From the IMG/VR virus record IMGVR_UViG_2870490042_000005: a stretch of DNA of 43,696 nucleotides. The stretch is one strand, 5' to 3'. The notes beneath the pieces were generated by a model. The model saw only the letters and a program-made list of their open reading frames with translations, ran no database searches and was not told the DNA's origin. The DNA is from a virus (Duplodnaviria > Heunggongvirae > Uroviricota > Caudoviricetes). Below are positions 2,935 through 33,120 of the stretch, in pieces. Positions within the stretch are counted from its first letter, which is position 1. The number at the start of each line of letters is the position of its first letter. The translations under genes were made by a program, and so were the position numbers.

Positions 2935-5695
2935 GGGTGTAGTACAGCACTCCACCAAGAGTAATTGCGTTGAAATTACCAACAGGCGTCAGTGTCACAG
3001 TACCAACCTGTCGAATCATACCATTTGGGAGAATATCCCAGGCAGTTTGTCCGTTTCGCGACATACCAAATGCGGACATGTCCGGGAGTTGATTATTACC
3101 GGTTCCGACATCCCGTTTTGCCGCTTCTCCCAATTGAAGGTATGCGAGAAGACCAGCTACATCCTTTCCACTCAAATTAGTCAGCGTATTGTCCAGCGGT
3201 TGTTTGCCCGCCAGTGCGCTCTGTACTTCGCTTTTGCTGTAGGCATCCAGATCTTTAGGCGTAAGCGTAATATCCTTCGTGCCGTCAAACGGAACGCCGT
3301 TGATATTCCGTGCAGTCTGTAGTTTTGTGGCAGTTGCAGCATTACCAGTGGTGTTCTGATTACCCGTAGTGTTTACACCTGGAAGGTTAATATTTGCAGA
3401 ACCGTCGAAAACAACTCCACCGATAGATCTTGCCGTCTGCAATTTCGTGGCTGTACTTGCATTACCATTCAATGAACCAGTTAATCCACCTGTAACAGAC
3501 AACGGACCTGAAACTGTTCCTCCGGTTGTTGGCAGTGCTCCAATATCTAACGGCGTCGGTTTCTGATGTGTGCTATACATCGTATAAACAACACCATAGG
3601 TAACGCTGGAAGGCTTACTCGCTGAATATGTTGGCGAGGTATAAACAGAAACTGACGCATTTGCAGTACAATCCCAATGGATATTTACACTCGTCGCATA
3701 ATTGCCAATCTCAACGTAAATATCATATGTATCGCCGGATGTGTTGATCCAGGCGAAATTCGTTAATCCGACGGCTGTACGCTTCCACAAAGCCCCGGTA
3801 ATTCCTTTGGGGTTTCCATTGCCTGCTCGTAGAACCAGTTCTGAAATGCCTGCCTGATGTGGGGAACCGACGTTGTAACCAGCGCCACCAATCAATGCGA
3901 TGTAAACGATGGAACTCGCCTGTGGCATGGTTACCGTTGCTAATTTGAACCAACCAGCACCACCGCTGAATGACATTGTTGTTGAGTTAAGCGTACCAAT
4001 ATCTTTCGGCGTCAGTGTTATATCCGCTGAAAGCGCCTTACCATTCACCTTACGGGCAGAAGGTACCCGACCATTCGCATTATCATTAGCTGCTTTCACT
4101 GCTTTCGGTGTCGCGGCAAGCGTTTCAGATGCGCTGTTGGTTGCACTACTGAGCTGGACAATTCCTTTTTGTGCTGTCGTAGCGTCCTGTGCGGTGTATT
4201 TCCCGTTAGCCAGGTCATACGCGGCCTTAACGGCTTTTGGCGTTGCCGCCTGTGACTCGGAAGTGCTGTTGGTCGCACTGCTGAGCTGTACTACCCCCTT
4301 TTTCGTCGTGCTCGCATCCTCAAGCGCCACAGCGGATGCAATATCCTCTGCCCGTTTTGCTGCTGTCTCGGCGCGCGTTGCCGCGGATTCCGCCGTACTT
4401 TTGCTCTGAGCTGCCGCCGTCGCACTGCCAGCTGCCTCTGTCGCCTTCGTGGATGCCGTCGTGGCGCTGCCCTTCGCTGCTGACGCTTGTCTGGTCGCCT
4501 CATCTTTTGAAGCAGACGCCGATGATGCCGATGACGCCGCCGAACTGGCGGACGATGCGGCAGCCGTTTTTGAGGATTCTGCACGGGTTTCCGACGCTTT
4601 CGCGTTCGTTTCGGATGTCTTCGCTGCGGAAGCTGACCTCGCTGCTGCGCTGGCCTGTTCAGTGGCTTCGCCAGCCTTCGTTGTGGCTGTTGAAGCAGAC
4701 GATGCGGCACTTTCTGCCGACTTTCCGGCAGCGGTGGCACTGGCTGAGGCCTGCCCGGCACTTGTTGATGCGGCACTGGCAGATGATGCAGCCGCTGTTT
4801 TTGAGCCTGCCGCAGCTGAGGCACTCTGTCCCGCTGCCGTTTCAGAAGACCTGGCGTTCGTCTCGGACGTTTTTGCCGCCTTCGCGGAATTTCCTGCCGC
4901 CGTTGCCGAGGAAGCGGCACTACTGGCGCTTGATGATGCGTTCGTTTCTGATGATTTCGCTGCCTCTTTTGAGGCCGCCGCATCCCGGGCTGAGGTGGCA
5001 GCTTCTGACGCCTTTGTGGTCGCTGCGGATGCAGAAGTGGCTGCAGATTTTTGTGACGCTGCCGCATTCGTTTCTGACGTTTTCGCCGCACCGGCACTGG
5101 TAGCTGCCGCGCTTTTTGAGGACTCTGCAGCGGCAGCACTTTTTGAGGCTTCAGTGGCCTTTGTTGATGCCGTTCCTGCGCTGGAAGACGCTGACTGAGC
5201 CGACGTCGCGGCCTGCCCGGCTGATGTGCTGGCTGCGCGTGCTGAGCCTGCAGCATCAGTCGCATGGGTTGCCGCCTCACGGGCTGATGTGCTGGCATCA
5301 CTGGCTGACTTCTTCGCGGCTGCCGTGTTCTGTGCCACCACGGACGCGTTACGCGCCACCTCTTCCACCATCAGCTCAAAACGGCGCAGTGCCTCCGGAC
5401 GGGCATCATCCTCCGTCATGGCACCGAGAAAATCATTCAGCGTACCGGGTCGGGAATCTTCATACACGGTGATGGTCCCGGCATGTGACGGCGGGAATCC
5501 TTCCACCAACAGAATAACGCTGTACTGACCGTACTCAACGTCCATGCTGTAACGCCCGGCTTCATCCGGATTTTCAGATGCCAGCGTGTTCACCACCACC
5601 GTGGTACTGTTACGTTTTGCTTTCAGCTGGATTGTGCAGTTCTGTACCGGTTTTCCTGTGCCGTCTTTCAGTACACCTGAAATTTTTACTGCCAT
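2935..5695 (-). pseudogene. stf: Side tail fibre protein Stf, proximal part, interrupted at 3' end by IS629
   Basis: Starts MAVKISGVLKDGTGKPVQNCTIQLKA (ATG at 5695; ORF track start is an upstream GTG); long Ala/Ser-rich repeat region; ORF runs into the IS end giving an artificial C-terminus …LNRPGNPGD. Confidence 0.85.
4050..4310 (-). repeat. Tandem ~117-bp (39-aa) repeat inside stf
   Basis: Protein repeats KGVVQLSSATNSTSESQAATPKAVKAAYDLANG / KGIVQLSSATNSASETLAATPKAVKAANDNANG; coordinates approximate. Confidence 0.5.
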
Positions 5696-25645: not shown

Positions 25646-25879
25646 ATGTCAACGAAGAACAGAACCCGCAGAACAACAACCCGCAACATCCGCTTTCCTA
25701 ACCAAATGATTGAACAAATTAACATCGCTCTTGATCAAAAAGGGTCCGGGAATTTCTCAGCCTGGGTCATTGAAGCCTGCCGCCGGAGACTGTGCTCAGA
25801 AAAAAGAGTTTCTCCTGAAGCAAACAAAGAAAAGAGTGACATTACTGAATTGCTCAGAAAACAGATCAGACCAGATTGA
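25646..25879 (+). CDS. Small YlcI-like protein (DUF3950-type), moron
   Basis: 77 aa, MSTKNRTRRTTTRNIRFPNQMIEQINIALDQKGSGNFSAWVIEACRRRL, resembles DLP12 YlcI from memory. Confidence 0.6.
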   Translation: MSTKNRTRRTTTRNIRFPNQMIEQINIALDQKGSGNFSAWVIEACRRRLCSEKRVSPEANKEKSDITELLRKQIRPD

Positions 25880-25920
25880 AGCAATTTAGATAATCGTGCA
25901 GACTACGCCCCTCATATCAC

Positions 25921-26346
25921 ATGGAAGGTACTACAATGGCTCAGGTTGCCATTTTTAAACAAATATTCGATAAAGTGCGAAATAATTTAAACTATCACTG
26001 GTTTTATTCTGAACTAAAACGTCACAATGTCTCACATTACATTTACTATTTAGCCACAGAGAATATTCATCTTGTTCTTGAAAACGATAATACGGTTTTA
26101 ATAAAAGGACAGGGTAAGGTTGTAAATGTAAGATTTTCAAAAAATAAATGCCTTATAGAAGCCACATTAAAAGGATTCAAATCAGGAGAGTTATCATTTT
26201 ACGAATACAGGAAAAATCTTGCTACAGCAGGGGTTTTCAGATGGATTACAAATATCCACGAAAACAAAAGGTATTACTATACCTTTGATAATTCATTACT
26301 CTTTACTGAGAACATTCAGAACACTACACAAATATTTCCGCACTAA
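25921..26346 (+). CDS. YbcV-like protein (DUF1398), moron
   Basis: 141 aa with …[28 protein letters not shown]…[15 protein letters not shown]…, resembles DLP12 YbcV from memory; AT-rich. Confidence 0.65.
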
Positions 26347-27750: not shown

Positions 27751-28077
27751 TTACTCCTTAGAGCCACCAAATTTGTTACCGATTACTCGCATTGCAGCCC
27801 CACGAATAGCATCGACACCGATCAGCCCCACCCCACCACCAATGGCAACAGATAGTGATTTAGGCCATCCGACATACTCAAGAGCGGATGCAAAAGTCAG
27901 CGTCAGAGCGCCACAGAGTAGAATTTCGAGTGTTTTTCGCTTCCAGCCGCCACCACCGCCAAAATAGGCAATACGTAAACCAGCCATAACAATCGACATA
28001 ATCACTGCGCCCAGCGGTGTGTCTCCACGCCACCAGCTCTGGACCAACTCCAGCCAGGTATTTGGGTTATGAGGCAT
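27751..28077 (-). CDS. S: Holin S (class I)
   Basis: 108 aa with transmembrane segments, C-terminus resembling lambda S. Confidence 0.8.
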   Translation of the reverse strand: MPHNPNTWLELVQSWWRGDTPLGAVIMSIVMAGLRIAYFGGGGGWKRKTLEILLCGALTLTFASALEYVGWPKSLSVAIGGGVGLIGVDAIRGAAMRVIGNKFGGSKE

Positions 28078-28217
28078 TTGTAGTTATCTCTCACCTCGCC
28101 AATACAGGAGGTGCAAATTGAGGGAACATCATGTACCGCAAATCAGAAGCGGAAACGTAAAAGAGGCCGAGCCAATGGATAACTGCGGTATAGACCAGGC
28201 TCAACAAATAGCCGGGG

Positions 28218-28250
28218 CCAGAAACGACAAACCCGCTCGACGGCGGGTTT
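28218..28250 (-). terminator. Terminator-like hairpin upstream of S (possible tR'-type)
   Basis: Stem aaacccgc/gcgggttt, T-rich tail on minus strand; assignment is inference. Confidence 0.35.
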
Positions 28251-28477
28251 AAGCTGTGTGGCGAAGTGACCACTCTTAACACGATACAATAGTTTTTGCG
28301 TACGCGTTAGCATTTTTGATGGAAGTTAATGGTTGTTAATCTTATACTCAGTAAACAAAATTTATGCCGCCTTGAGCATGATGCGACATGAGGCACATGT
28401 TTGGATCTTCCTCGAAGATTCGTGCGGTAGCTATGCTCAAAATCCAATCAGCTCATAAAACATACTATGGGTTTTAA

Positions 28478-29227
28478 ATGCTCATTCCAACATCTCTATC
28501 AAAACAACCAGTAATCGAAGCTGCTTTCGAAATGCGTTTTTCTAAAGAAACACAAATATCGGAAATAGTTCCAGGGTTTCTTTTTCACGCTCTAGGTTGT
28601 ACAAAACCAGTAATTAGTTTACCACCCAGTCAAATACCTAAAAATGTTCGTGAGGGAGATGAACAATTACATTACGCAGTTGTCAGTCGCCTCGAAATCG
28701 AAGGGTACTATATTGGACTAAGTGACCATGGTGTTGTTGTATCCACCAGCACCAAATATCAAGGGTGGAGTCATTTTAGAGAAAAAATCATTCATGTATT
28801 AAATGAGCTTAACAAATTAAATTTAAATGACAACATCATCCGCTACTCATTAAAGTATGTAGATTTTTTCCCAAAAGAAGACGATTCTAATTTATTTGAT
28901 AAGCTAAACGTCAGCTTAAATATGGCTGGCGAGTCTATGTCTAATTATCCGATCAATATCAGAATCGATAAAAATGAAGGCGCATTTCTAAATATAATTC
29001 AAATATTATCTCATGCTTTAGTCATGTCAGATAATGGAGAATTTAATAAAAAAGGACTAATCCTAGACATAGACAGCATTAGGCAAATCACTAATACTGA
29101 TGAAATAGATAAGTTTAAAAACGAACCAAAAAAAATTCTTGATGATCTTCACTCCTGTAATAAATTAGCTTTCTTTAGTTGCCTTAAAGAGTCAACAATT
29201 CAAGAACTAGAACCATCCTACAAATAG
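28478..29227 (+). CDS. Cassette ORF-A, hypothetical protein (249 aa)
   Basis: Long ORF in AT-rich DNA on strand opposite to late operon; no recognised catalytic motif; N-terminus KQPVIEAAFEMRF. Confidence 0.6.
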   Translation: MLIPTSLSKQPVIEAAFEMRFSKETQISEIVPGFLFHALGCTKPVISLPPSQIPKNVREGDEQLHYAVVSRLEIEGYYIGLSDHGVVVSTSTKYQGWSHFREKIIHVLNELNKLNLNDNIIRYSLKYVDFFPKEDDSNLFDKLNVSLNMAGESMSNYPINIRIDKNEGAFLNIIQILSHALVMSDNGEFNKKGLILDIDSIRQITNTDEIDKFKNEPKKILDDLHSCNKLAFFSCLKESTIQELEPSYK

Positions 29228-29242
29228 AAATGGTGGTATGAT

Positions 29243-29587
29243 ATGTATCCGTCTCATCATGTTTATCGAGCTCAACTTCAAGTATTAACTTTGGTTTTAT
29301 ATGGTCTGCATATAACTGCATTAACAGACATTGCCCAAAATCAACAGCATGGTCCTCAACAAAGTTTAATCGTCAAAAATCACGCTTTGGAGTATAAGTC
29401 TTCAACTACCGATTCAGTTCATTCCATCACACAAACATATAAAGCAGGGAGCACAATCTCAGTTGATCAAAGACTTGCAGTCTCGATGACAAACTTTTAT
29501 GAAAAATTATCGACAAACCAGGTGTCTTTAGGCAGTGAAATAAATAAAGTCGTTCATGCTTCACTGTGGGATTTATACTTGGATTAA
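29243..29587 (+). CDS. Cassette ORF-B, hypothetical protein (114 aa)
   Basis: ATG preceded by ggtggt RBS-like motif; same frame as ORF-A, separated by TAG plus 5 codons. Confidence 0.5.
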   Translation: MYPSHHVYRAQLQVLTLVLYGLHITALTDIAQNQQHGPQQSLIVKNHALEYKSSTTDSVHSITQTYKAGSTISVDQRLAVSMTNFYEKLSTNQVSLGSEINKVVHASLWDLYLD

Positions 29588-30205
29588 GTGATGAGTAATA
29601 ACATTTTTGATATCGAGAAATTCAAAGATCAAATTCCATATTATTTAACAGCTCATCAAAAAGAAGGGCTAATAAATGCACTTAGAGATTTCCCTGAAAA
29701 CACTAACTACTACCTTAGCAATTATCATGATGATCTGAAAAATGCTGCACTTCAGGGAGATATATTTAAGGAGCTTACAGTATATTCAATTAAAGGGACT
29801 AAAAAAACACGAGGCATTATATTAAGCAACAGTTGCGATATAGATACAAGTAATAATCGTGATGTGCCAATGCGTGCAGTCTTTGCTCCGTTAGTAAGTT
29901 TATCTAAGTTCGAAGCTATTCTTCTCTCCAACGGAGTTTCTAAGACTTCAATAGATAGCAAAATTGATGCTATAAGGAAGCAGTTAATTACTAATATTTT
30001 TTATCTTCCTGAATCAGACAACTTAGAAGAATGCATCGTTTTTCTTGATGATGTATACCAATTACCAACGGAAGAATTACAAAAACTCTTGAATGATAAA
30101 TGCAAAGCCATAACTTTAAGTCAAGTTGGTTTCTACATTTTACTATTCAAAATATCTATTCACTTTTGTAGATTCCATGAAAACATACAACGATTCGATC
30201 ATTAA
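29588..30205 (+). CDS. Cassette ORF-C, hypothetical protein (205 aa)
   Basis: GTG-ATG immediately after ORF-B TAA stop, same frame; terminator follows. Confidence 0.55.
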   Translation: MMSNNIFDIEKFKDQIPYYLTAHQKEGLINALRDFPENTNYYLSNYHDDLKNAALQGDIFKELTVYSIKGTKKTRGIILSNSCDIDTSNNRDVPMRAVFAPLVSLSKFEAILLSNGVSKTSIDSKIDAIRKQLITNIFYLPESDNLEECIVFLDDVYQLPTEELQKLLNDKCKAITLSQVGFYILLFKISIHFCRFHENIQRFDH

Positions 30206-30232
30206 GGCGGTACTACCGCCTTTTATTATTTT
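30204..30232 (+). terminator. Rho-independent terminator ending the plus-strand cassette
   Basis: Stem aaggcggta/taccgcctt followed by ttattatttt. Confidence 0.65.
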
Positions 30233-30590
30233 ACACAAGTATACTTACAACCCCCTCTATAAAACCGATTGCGGTTTGCAACTCCTTCCTAATAGTGCCA
30301 TCAGAGCACCTTCTCCTTTTGGCAATAGTGCGTAATGAGATACCAATAACAAAGTGGGCTATGATGAGCTCATATTCCTCTGGTTTATACTTTCTCAACC
30401 GAGCCACACAACTGTCTATCATAATGCCTTCGTCATCATCACACTGAATCCGTGACTTTTTGCCATGAGGTAAAAGCCCCTTGAAGCCTGCTGCTACCGG
30501 CTGCCAGTCCACACCACTGTTGTCTGCTGCAGCCCATGCTCCCCAGCGGTCCAATACTTCATACATATCACGCATCAACTTACCCCACAA
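30231..30590 (-). CDS. Q: Late gene antiterminator Q (Phage_antitermQ type, not lambda Q)
   Basis: …MRDMYEVLDRWGAWAAADNSGVDWQ…GFKGLL… matches the antitermination Q family from memory; true start may be ATG at 30575. Confidence 0.75.
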   Translation of the reverse strand: MWGKLMRDMYEVLDRWGAWAAADNSGVDWQPVAAGFKGLLPHGKKSRIQCDDDEGIMIDSCVARLRKYKPEEYELIIAHFVIGISLRTIAKRRRCSDGTIRKELQTAIGFIEGVVSILV

Positions 30591-30593
30591 AAA

Positions 30594-31589
30594 TCAGGCC
30601 AGCACGCCAATTGCCAGCGCACGATCGATAAAACGAAATATCAGCTCCAGCTGGGAACCATACTTCTCTTCAAATGCCACGGTATCCGCATGCAGCTCGT
30701 CGTGATGCTTTCTGCACAAAGGCAACACAAAAAGGTCATGCGCTTTTGTTCCCATTCCACCCTGACCGTGACCTATCAGGTGGTGGGGATCATCAGCGGG
30801 CTTTCCACAACATGCACACGGTTGTGTCTTAACCCAGCGCGTGTACTTTTCATTAACCCAGCGGCGACGTTTTGGGCGTAACATAAAAGACTCCGGCGAC
30901 TCCGGATCCACTTTCAGCGCCAGCACCTTTTTCGCTTTATCCTGGATGATGCTGGTGGCAGGAACAGAAGGAACAAGGTCACTTTCCCGGGTGACAGACG
31001 GCACAACAGGCTTCGGTAATCTCAGTGCCTTACGGGCTGCACTTTCCGGCAAGGCATCCGCCAGGTCATTACGAACCAGCCACCAGCACAGTTCCGGCAT
31101 TGTCACAACGTGACTGTCATCAAAACCGAGATCCCGACGCACGACAGACAACACCCAGCGGGCACAGTTATCCGTTGCCATTGATTCCAGCCGTTCCGTG
31201 AACTGGTCACGCAGCTGGTTATCACAGTGCCAGCACAGACGGATTGCGCCCGGAGCGTGCCGCATTGTGGTCATGTTCTCGCTGTGCCAGTCGGAATGAG
31301 GCCACTGACAGCCCTTTTCACGAAGTAACCAGCTTTCAAGACATTCCACGCCACCAGCACGACGGATCACTGCCTCATTGCGGAACACGGCCCGAACGGC
31401 AGGATCATCCGCCAGCGGTTGTGATGCCGCCGGAACGGCACCACTGGCGAAAGATGAATAACGTTCCGGCTCAGGCTCCAGCAGGACACGCCCCTGCATA
31501 AACAGGGGCATCAGCTCTGAACCTGGCCTGAACAATACGATCCCCATACGCGGGGCAATTTCAGGGGTCAGTAGTGCTCTCACGGTCAC
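30594..31589 (-). CDS. DUF968-type protein with C-terminal HNH-like motif
   Basis: 331 aa; C-terminus …HHLIGHGQGGMGTKAHDLFVLPLCRKHHDELH; start codon uncertain. Confidence 0.6.
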   Translation of the reverse strand: MTVRALLTPEIAPRMGIVLFRPGSELMPLFMQGRVLLEPEPERYSSFASGAVPAASQPLADDPAVRAVFRNEAVIRRAGGVECLESWLLREKGCQWPHSDWHSENMTTMRHAPGAIRLCWHCDNQLRDQFTERLESMATDNCARWVLSVVRRDLGFDDSHVVTMPELCWWLVRNDLADALPESAARKALRLPKPVVPSVTRESDLVPSVPATSIIQDKAKKVLALKVDPESPESFMLRPKRRRWVNEKYTRWVKTQPCACCGKPADDPHHLIGHGQGGMGTKAHDLFVLPLCRKHHDELHADTVAFEEKYGSQLELIFRFIDRALAIGVLA

Positions 31590-32407: not shown

Positions 32408-32797
32408 TCAGGCGGCTGCACCCGCCGTTTTCTCGTACTTACTGATAGTGATCTCGACCTTCCCTTCCGGGATAACCGGTCCCCACTCCACCAGCATTCT
32501 TTTCACCTGGCTGTCGTCTTCCCACACACCCGCGTGGGTCAGGGCGTCAAACAGCGCCTTGTTATAGTTGTCCAGATCGCGGATCCGGTTATCCGGAGGA
32601 AACAACACGATCTCCACTGAAGCAGGTGCCGACGTTGGTTTTGGCAGACGACGTAACTGCTCAACTATTGCTGCACACGCCGCGCTCTGGAATTTGCGCC
32701 CCGCCGCGCTTATCAGGCTCTTACCTGCAAACGCCCCTTTGTTGGGGTGTCGCCAGTACGTGTTCACGCTGGGCGGGAAAGGCAGGATCAGCTTCAT
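32408..32797 (-). CDS. rusA: Holliday junction resolvase RusA
   Basis: 129 aa, MKLILPFPPSVNTYWRH…DLDNYNKALFDALTHAGVWEDDSQV, typical RusA. Confidence 0.85.
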   Translation of the reverse strand: MKLILPFPPSVNTYWRHPNKGAFAGKSLISAAGRKFQSAACAAIVEQLRRLPKPTSAPASVEIVLFPPDNRIRDLDNYNKALFDALTHAGVWEDDSQVKRMLVEWGPVIPEGKVEITISKYEKTAGAAA

Positions 32798-33120
32798 ACT
32801 TTCAGACCCCTCTCATGTAACCAGTGGGCTGCACGCAGCCTGGCGTTTTCCTCACCGGCAAGCAGTGAGCGGATAATCCCGACCGCCTCGCTGTCGTCGT
32901 CCTTGACCGCGGTATGAAGCGTTATCCCCCGGGCCACACCACGCTTTATCGTGATGACGCCTTTTTTCTCCAGTGCGCGAAGATGCTCCACCGCTGCATT
33001 CACCGAACGGTATCCCAGCATGGTTGCCACCTCCTGATTGGTTGGCGGGAAGCCACGTTCTTTCTGATAAGAAATCAGCATATCCAGCACCTGCTGCTGA
33101 CATTGAGTTAACGTCGTCAT
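32794..33120 (-). CDS. LexA DNA-binding-domain-like protein lacking peptidase domain
   Basis: 108 aa; …LTQCQQQVLDMLISYQKERGFPPTNQEVATMLGYRSVNAAVEHLRALEKKGVITIKRGVARGI… parallels the LexA N-terminal winged helix. Confidence 0.6.
   Translation of the reverse strand: MTTLTQCQQQVLDMLISYQKERGFPPTNQEVATMLGYRSVNAAVEHLRALEKKGVITIKRGVARGITLHTAVKDDDSEAVGIIRSLLAGEENARLRAAHWLHERGLKV

Follow-up and report, generated by a model that had tools for sequence, protein, structure and literature searches.

In the toxin-antitoxin (TA) pairs MazEF, Kis-Kid and CcdAB, the tails of MazE, Kis and CcdA neutralise their toxins. The toxin-antitoxin-chaperone (TAC) systems CmdTAC (PMC11618068) and those of the HigBAC type (bioRxiv 10.1101/2024.02.24.581848) are candidate abortive-infection systems that unite an effector, a labile neutraliser and a third protein possibly coupling phage sensing to the stability of the neutraliser. 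In addition, the old/tin hotspot of P2 and the psu-int hotspot of P4 (PMC9122126), as well as rexAB next to cI in lambda, exemplify self-contained cargo of variable content that is housed at a fixed site. Here we describe a cassette of three genes, A, B and C, located between the antiterminator gene Q and the holin gene of IMG/VR virus record IMGVR_UViG_2870490042_000005 (Caudoviricetes). The window, that is the whole stretch of 43,696 nucleotides (nt) analysed, is a lambdoid prophage of Escherichia coli, integrated at tRNA-Thr/proA. We propose, with about an even chance of being right, that A-B-C, a self-contained and horizontally mobile operon, would be expressed in the lysogen as a tripartite TA-like abortive-infection module, acting against phages or in superinfection exclusion.

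The trio differs from MazEF, Kis-Kid and CcdAB in that it has no sequence-level homology with them, that B carries no AbrB, ribbon-helix-helix (RHH) or other DNA-binding domain, and that a third gene, A, leads the operon. Its likeness to the TAC systems is a matter of functional speculation only, since A is not SecB-like but has a duplicated TBP-like architecture, the proposed gene order is sensor-adaptor-toxin and the toxin fold is different. None of the systems of Rousset et al, 2022 (PMC9122126) is identical to it. Among these is Rst_3HP, a P2-hotspot system of three hypothetical proteins giving protection against P1 (PMC9122126); it was considered and discarded, as the pFR109 proteins, with their roughly 330, 365 and 225 amino acids (aa), are visibly unrelated in sequence to the trio (PMC9122126 Table S2A). 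Type II Gabija GajC, a split MazF-like effector that works with the UvrD-like helicase GajB, provides a precedent for a divergent MazF-fold effector in an anti-phage system (PMC13069673); an identity with GajC was rejected, there being no helicase or ATPase in the cassette and the partners being unrelated. The Tai system was likewise found to be unrelated to the trio. Profile searches gave no functional name from Pfam or PADLOC, and none of the three proteins matched PADLOC-DB v2.0.0 at E <= 0.1. Public sources call them only "TIGR04255 family protein" or "hypothetical protein", and neither TIGR04255 nor the RefSeq accessions were mentioned in the literature searched, subscription-only papers lying outside its scope. 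The genes are therefore catalogued, while the system is unnamed and uncharacterised in PADLOC v2, Pfam, the PDB sequences and the literature searched (DefenseFinder after 2023 being outside this scope).

A sequence-only reading of this DNA had listed three plus-strand open reading frames (ORFs) of 249, 114 and 205 aa sharing one reading frame, and both observations are correct, the common frame being frame 2. It had also considered that they might be a single gene of ~575 aa with nonsense codons or readthrough, a proposal that fails. An ancestral gene of this kind, now a pseudogene with two nonsense codons or subject to programmed stop-codon readthrough, would account for the common frame, in which a TAG (29225-29227) and five codons precede the ATG of B at 29243 and a TAA (29585-29587) ends B; it would also suit Citrobacter and relatives (loci L086-L088, 5882-7618), where the three genes again lie in one frame, with a stop and single-codon spacers between them. 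Its probability is nonetheless practically negligible. In Dobby, VW-6S, Klebsiella and nearly all the other ~130 homologous loci, B is out of the frame of A, with an 8-nt overlap; fused homologues were absent from the 466 C-family matches, each of them about 200 aa long, and from the 150 best of the 2,733 A-family clusters, where the length is always about 250 aa; and every ORF is an end-to-end match to its own full-length PHROG. Moreover, B has its own Shine-Dalgarno sequence (GGTGG), and the TAA of B is directly followed by GTG ATG, a typical termination-reinitiation junction at the start of C. The ATG of C, which is the RefSeq start (29591, giving 204 aa), is 3 nt or one codon past the stop of B, this distance falling to 0 nt if GTG 29588 is used (205 aa). 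Of 5,426 complete E. coli genomes, 92 carry the cassette with an identity of at least 99%, and each of them has it annotated as three coding sequences; the same three are already annotated in RefSeq. The comparison of frames and the absence of fused homologues thus rule out a single broken or read-through gene and indicate that the cassette encodes three separate proteins. The same-frame layout was not seen in Klebsiella, and we consider it to be inherited within one enterobacterial subclade because the Citrobacter relatives share it.

The trio recurs in about 130 homologous loci of several phyla, including Proteobacteria, Bacteroidota, Ignavibacteriota and Nitrospirota. When one genome per species was scanned, the C alignment yielded 85 loci, 82 of which have A and B upstream of C (B being detected by an iterative hidden Markov model (HMM)), the exceptions being contig ends or degraded copies; about 80 of the 85 retain an unbroken A-B-C order. 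In viral contigs 48 loci were recovered, 47 of them with all three genes, and at least 1,000 contigs of E. coli or Escherichia carry the trio. Across the ~130 loci, the typical overlap of A with B is 8 nt and the frames of the two almost always differ, while B and C are typically separated by 2-17 nt or overlap slightly. The layout of type II TA genes, in which a toxin gene and a gene for a small protein are adjacent, co-oriented and translationally coupled, is consequently found here. With the divergent A proteins, tblastn found nothing in phages and one plasmid match, which is a canonical trio.

The association of the trio with mobile elements is clear. In Citrobacter prophages it occupies the same Q-holin gap, again antisense. 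In Klebsiella prophages (loci L089-L091, 5905-7615) it is antisense in the nin (early-right) region, adjoining a DNA_pol3_theta (HolE-like) gene, and is thus found in another slot of another lambdoid backbone. The same trio occurs in the Pseudomonas phages Dobby and VW-6S, where identity is about 32% and the genes lie in differing frames: in P2-like Dobby it lies beside the portal gene, which is the old/tin hotspot position (PMC9122126), and in VW-6S it is directly downstream of the CI repressor. It adjoins an integrase on a Phocaeicola plasmid, has integrases on either side in Trinickia, where a filamentous prophage and a P4-like element are adjacent, adjoins MazEF in Allochromatium and is part of an island with ParE, BrnT, Wadjet and a group-II intron in Candidatus Symbiobacter. 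When the 136 nearest neighbours from about 70 species were classified, phage integrase was the commonest family (8/136); type I, II and IIG restriction-modification components, AbiTii, AriA and HipA each gave single matches.

The cassette occupies a slot whose content is exchanged between prophages. An alignment of the window to four other prophages of E. coli that share its Q and holin defined the junctions. The backbone shared by the five extends from the start of the holin gene to about 28311, ending "...TTTTTGCGTACGCGTTAG", and resumes at the Q stop codon at 30231; since the cargo differs in between, the swappable module, or moron, can be placed at about 28312-30230. A palindrome, TGCGTACGCGT, lies at 28297-28312, exactly on the left cargo junction, and is conserved in each of the five aligned prophages. 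Cargo exchange could have its recombination point here. The survey of cargo in related prophages that had been suggested for this interval revealed variable contents with known defence cargo among them: a TIR-TM protein (PADLOC PDLC03016, 1.7e-57), PDC-M53A/B, an SDH-type Clp-fold protease and a pair of hypothetical proteins in the sister prophages, and an annotated DNA methyltransferase or OmpC in other records. The alternative cargos of the sister prophages have the same antisense orientation, each with its own terminator hairpin adjoining Q. A defence role for the trio is plausible because the same slot carries PADLOC-recognised defence cargo in sister prophages. The original description as a candidate undescribed accessory or defence module can accordingly be kept for "accessory" and "undescribed", while "defence" is a plausible interpretation of the slot cargo. 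No description of the antisense Q-to-holin slot as a defence hotspot was found in the literature searched.

The suspected AT-richness was borne out, with a GC content of 0.338 (28312-30230) against 0.507 in the lysis-gene flank, 0.530 in the Q-side flank and 0.521 in the whole window, and this is the lowest-GC stretch of 1.9 kb in the window. The terminator that had been noticed was also recovered, as an 8-bp stem (30204-30222) followed by TTATTATTTT. A terminator of its own and a deviant base composition (GC 0.338 vs 0.52) are features of a moron. The stx genes are Q-dependent; they share the strand of the late genes and lie downstream of pR'/tR'. The cassette resembles them in being found in the Q-to-lysis interval of a lambdoid phage, and was rightly recognised as a discrete accessory cassette of this interval, but the parallel in placement is imprecise: it lies on the opposite strand, outside the late transcript and upstream of the conserved holin leader (28078-28311). 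The minus strand encodes Q, holin, lysozyme and Rz, so that the cassette runs antisense to the late genes and meets Q in convergent orientation. The leader probably holds the late promoter, qut and tR'. The only minus-strand promoter predicted by a consensus scan, at 28339-28312, is unlikely to be pR' because it is inside cargo-specific DNA. As a self-contained moron, the cassette thus lies upstream of the late leader, unlike cargo in the sense orientation of the late transcript such as stx. Upstream of A, the sequence at 28404-28418 (ATCTTC-CTC-GAAGAT) is a perfect palindrome of 6 bp, which might serve as an operator or form an RNA hairpin; in Citrobacter, compensatory changes on both arms keep its pairing (GTCTT...AAGAC).

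The earlier view that no family could be recognised for any of the ORFs has to be revised for the first, which belongs to TIGR04255, and for the fold of the third, which is MazF/CcdB-like. A matches the TIGR04255 HMM with 96.2 bits (curated cut-off 30; E 2.6e-27) over residues 7-244, equivalent to model positions 2-251/252, and RefSeq names it likewise. Its predicted structure (pLDDT 91.6, pTM 0.89) has two repeats of a beta-alpha/beta-beta-beta-alpha unit; in the model, A is a duplicated TBP-like architecture, a fold from which no activity can be assigned. It has no match to SecB in Pfam or NCBIfam.

The second protein, B, is about 105-115 aa long and acidic, with a net charge of about -6. 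Its N-terminus contains a hydrophobic stretch of ~13 residues (median KD13 1.98, median KD19 1.48), with the usual transmembrane threshold being reached by only 24 of 80 B sequences. The middle part is poorly conserved and the C-terminus strongly so, with the consensus FY..L...QEPLG.EFE.VL..NLWDLYES. B is the fastest-evolving of the three, its identity falling to 33-35% where A and C retain 42-66%; the synonymous sites (dS) being saturated, all that can be stated is that the nonsynonymous proportion (pN) is lower than the synonymous one (pS). By its small size, acidity, rapid evolution and conserved C-terminal motif, B appears to behave like an antitoxin.

The predicted structure of C (pLDDT 86.5) contains an SH3-like barrel of the MazF/CcdB type, to which an N-terminal helical extension and a two-helix insertion are added, C being twice the size of MazF. 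Thirteen residues are invariant in 118 sequences from all phyla (Q55, G56, D57, N80, C82, N88, P100, Q131, P140, K187, S189, R194 and R201), and H191, D83, R90 and E/D197 are nearly so. The polar members of this invariant set are consistent with a catalytic site that would differ from that of MazF. The catalytic residues of E. coli MazF are R29 and T52. By eye, a basic R/K74 precedes an invariant G75 in C where MazF has R29-P30.

We propose that C would be a growth-arresting effector, most likely an endoribonuclease and less likely a gyrase poison. B could serve as a labile neutraliser or adaptor whose conserved acidic C-terminal helices keep C inactive, while its N-terminal hydrophobic segment may tether it to A or to the membrane. 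A would then act as a sensor or stabiliser, the state of which decides whether B restrains C, in functional analogy to the chaperone of TAC defence systems. During the lytic growth of the prophage itself, convergent transcription of the early-right operon through Q may silence the cassette. The anatomy of the locus resembles what such a mechanism would require, with a MazF/CcdB-fold C bearing invariant polar residues, a B translationally coupled immediately upstream of it and a third partner devoid of catalytic features; the tight co-inheritance, the mobility, the slots shared with defence cargo and the positions typical of lysogen-expressed genes fit the same picture. What the data show is the gene structure, its conservation and mobility, the predicted folds and the location in a hotspot; that C is toxic, that A and B have these roles and that the trio defends against phages is inferred, and position and fold make the defence reading plausible and well motivated.

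Several observations weigh against this proposal. C has no Pfam match to PF02452 (MazF/PemK) at E <= 0.1, a PDB profile search with C returned no MazF and nothing relevant, and hhalign gave a probability of 0.5% against a MazF/Kid/PemK alignment. Sequence-level homology to MazF was dropped after these three results, and, because sequence methods miss the relationship with MazF, we claim a fold-level resemblance and no family membership. By eye, moreover, the position after P100 that would match T52 of MazF is not conserved. Neither A nor B has a DNA-binding domain (helix-turn-helix, RHH, AbrB or other) or a match to an antitoxin or chaperone family in Pfam, NCBIfam or PADLOC, and A has no recognisable catalytic site and a fold that gives no functional clue. 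Were the hydrophobic N-terminus of B to act as a signal or anchor, the conserved C-terminus could lie outside the cytoplasm, which would break the antitoxin model. No sigma-70 site was found by consensus scan on the plus strand upstream of A. The natural knockouts are uninformative: C is broken and A and B are intact in three loci, A is broken and C is intact in three, most of these being metagenome-assembled genomes, some probably from long reads, and the coverage of the B model is uneven. Lastly, many neighbours of the trio are housekeeping genes, and outside phages the trio is only moderately associated with defence islands.

The same data have to be considered under three other explanations. 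The trio might be a plain addiction module that stabilises its carrier elements by post-segregational killing and has no part in phage defence. A MazF-fold C next to a small acidic B would suit this, as would the occurrence on a plasmid, on integrative elements and in prophages and the proximity to the classical TA pairs MazEF, ParE, BrnT and HipA. Simple addiction, however, has no need of a larger conserved third partner, and the phage slots alternate with defence cargo, the cI-adjacent position and the P2 old locus being typical of lysogen-expressed exclusion genes; we therefore regard pure addiction as quite unlikely, while addiction and defence are not mutually exclusive. It can also be hypothesised that the operon is a non-toxic accessory one, for lysogenic conversion or regulation, in which the barrel of C is a binding scaffold and A binds a ligand or macromolecule. 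C is devoid of a MazF sequence signal, TBP-like and Bet v1-like folds often bind ligands, the hotspot also takes OmpC or a methyltransferase as non-defence cargo, and many of the non-phage neighbours are housekeeping genes, all of which lends this alternative some substance. Its sporadic and patchy occurrence on the mobile elements of different phyla, the tight coupling of the three genes and the strongly conserved polar residues of C (D57, C82, K187, H191, R194, E197 and R201) suggest instead a catalytic or toxic effector with conflict-type dynamics, and a non-toxic operon is possible and on the whole unlikely. Finally, an RNA antitoxin might hold C in a type III-like arrangement, A and B having unrelated roles. 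This is highly improbable: the region 27900-30700 contains no tandem repeat array (a 2-copy, 10-nt chance match only) and no Rfam match, and the MazF/Kid/CcdB score of C is much above that for type III toxins.

If the trio is a defence system, as we propose, it is a widely distributed one, from Proteobacteria to Bacteroidota, that was missed by PADLOC v2 and Pfam. It would give a first function to the TIGR04255 family with its 2,733 clusters, and, in lambdoid prophages, the antisense slot from Q to the holin leader would be a hotspot to be mined systematically for defence cargo. C would be a divergent MazF-fold effector, of interest for mechanistic study through its distinct set of invariant residues (D57, C82, K187, H191, R194, E197 and R201). 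An addiction module or a non-toxic accessory operon would be of modest interest.

Other small operons also begin with distant TIGR04255 proteins, which is of relevance to the proposed role of A. In Paraburkholderia, such a protein (85 bits) heads an operon adjoining an integrase and a relaxase (locus L094, 6001-7747; the same element in L095). The second gene of this operon encodes 182 aa with a B-like N-terminus, consisting of a polar stretch of ~12 residues and then ALAGILSVAMLAGI, and a C-terminal part that differs; the third encodes 147 aa, is unrelated to C and contains the motif RTRADYH (R-x4-H). Neither partner has a match in any library. A HEPN identity of the 147-aa protein was considered and is speculation only, as it derives from the RTRADYH motif alone and searches of Pfam, NCBIfam and PDB were negative. 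For a further TIGR04255 protein (89 bits; L096, 652-1895, and L097), the next gene encodes an unrelated protein of 170 aa that resembles neither B nor C, and the contigs are too short to show further genes. These two cases, which are preliminary, suggest that A is a constant module with variable partners. One might tentatively go further, although we doubt that it will hold in full, and see TIGR04255 proteins as modular sensors of phage infection, working through a small adaptor with an N-terminal segment conserved in character and interchangeable toxic effectors, in a new tripartite immune architecture. The effectors might include the MazF-fold protein of the canonical trio, the unrelated R-x4-H protein of 147 aa in Paraburkholderia and others; and phages, satellites and integrative elements might have spread this architecture over many bacterial phyla.

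Table 1. Features of the cassette and of its immediate surroundings; positions are those of the window.
Feature	Position	Strand	Remarks
Lambda-family holin	27751-28077	-	PF05106 5.7e-25
Conserved holin-proximal leader	28078-28311	-	Terminator-like hairpin 28251 to 28228; near-identical in five prophages of differing cargo
Swappable cargo module (moron)	about 28312-30230	.	From conserved holin leader to Q stop codon
Cargo-specific upstream region, presumed promoter and 5' UTR (untranslated region)	28312-28477	+	166 bp, kept in E. coli and Citrobacter cassettes
Gene A, TIGR04255-family protein, 249 aa	28478-29227	+	
Gene B, small acidic protein, 114 aa	29243-29587	+	phrog_5728
Gene C, MazF/Kid/CcdB-fold protein (predicted), putative effector, 204 aa	29591-30205	+	205 aa from GTG 29588 (29588-30205)
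Intrinsic terminator	30204-30232	+	Stem AAGGCGGTA-CTA-CCGCCTT, then TTATTATTTT; abuts Q stop codon
Antiterminator Q	30231-30590	-	RefSeq coding sequence 30231-30575; PF06530 1.4e-44

Other parts of the window also call for comment. A second AT-rich (GC 0.364) antisense insert of two genes, a YlcI/YnfO family member and a DUF1398 gene (PF07166, 3.3e-43), is located on the plus strand at 25646-26346, with the lysis genes on one side and the small terminase gene nohD on the other, and looks like another moron. An IS3-family transposase adjoins a tail-fibre gene annotated as truncated, with the C-terminus missing (1667-2880 and 3371-5695), and the prophage may be defective for tail-fibre function; a recombinase fragment is present at 102-223. 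Two LexA-family regulators are encoded, one of 108 aa in the early-right operon and one at the repressor position (32794-33120 and 36434-37060), and the prophage also carries a PerC-family regulator (yfdN) and an N6-adenine methyltransferase.

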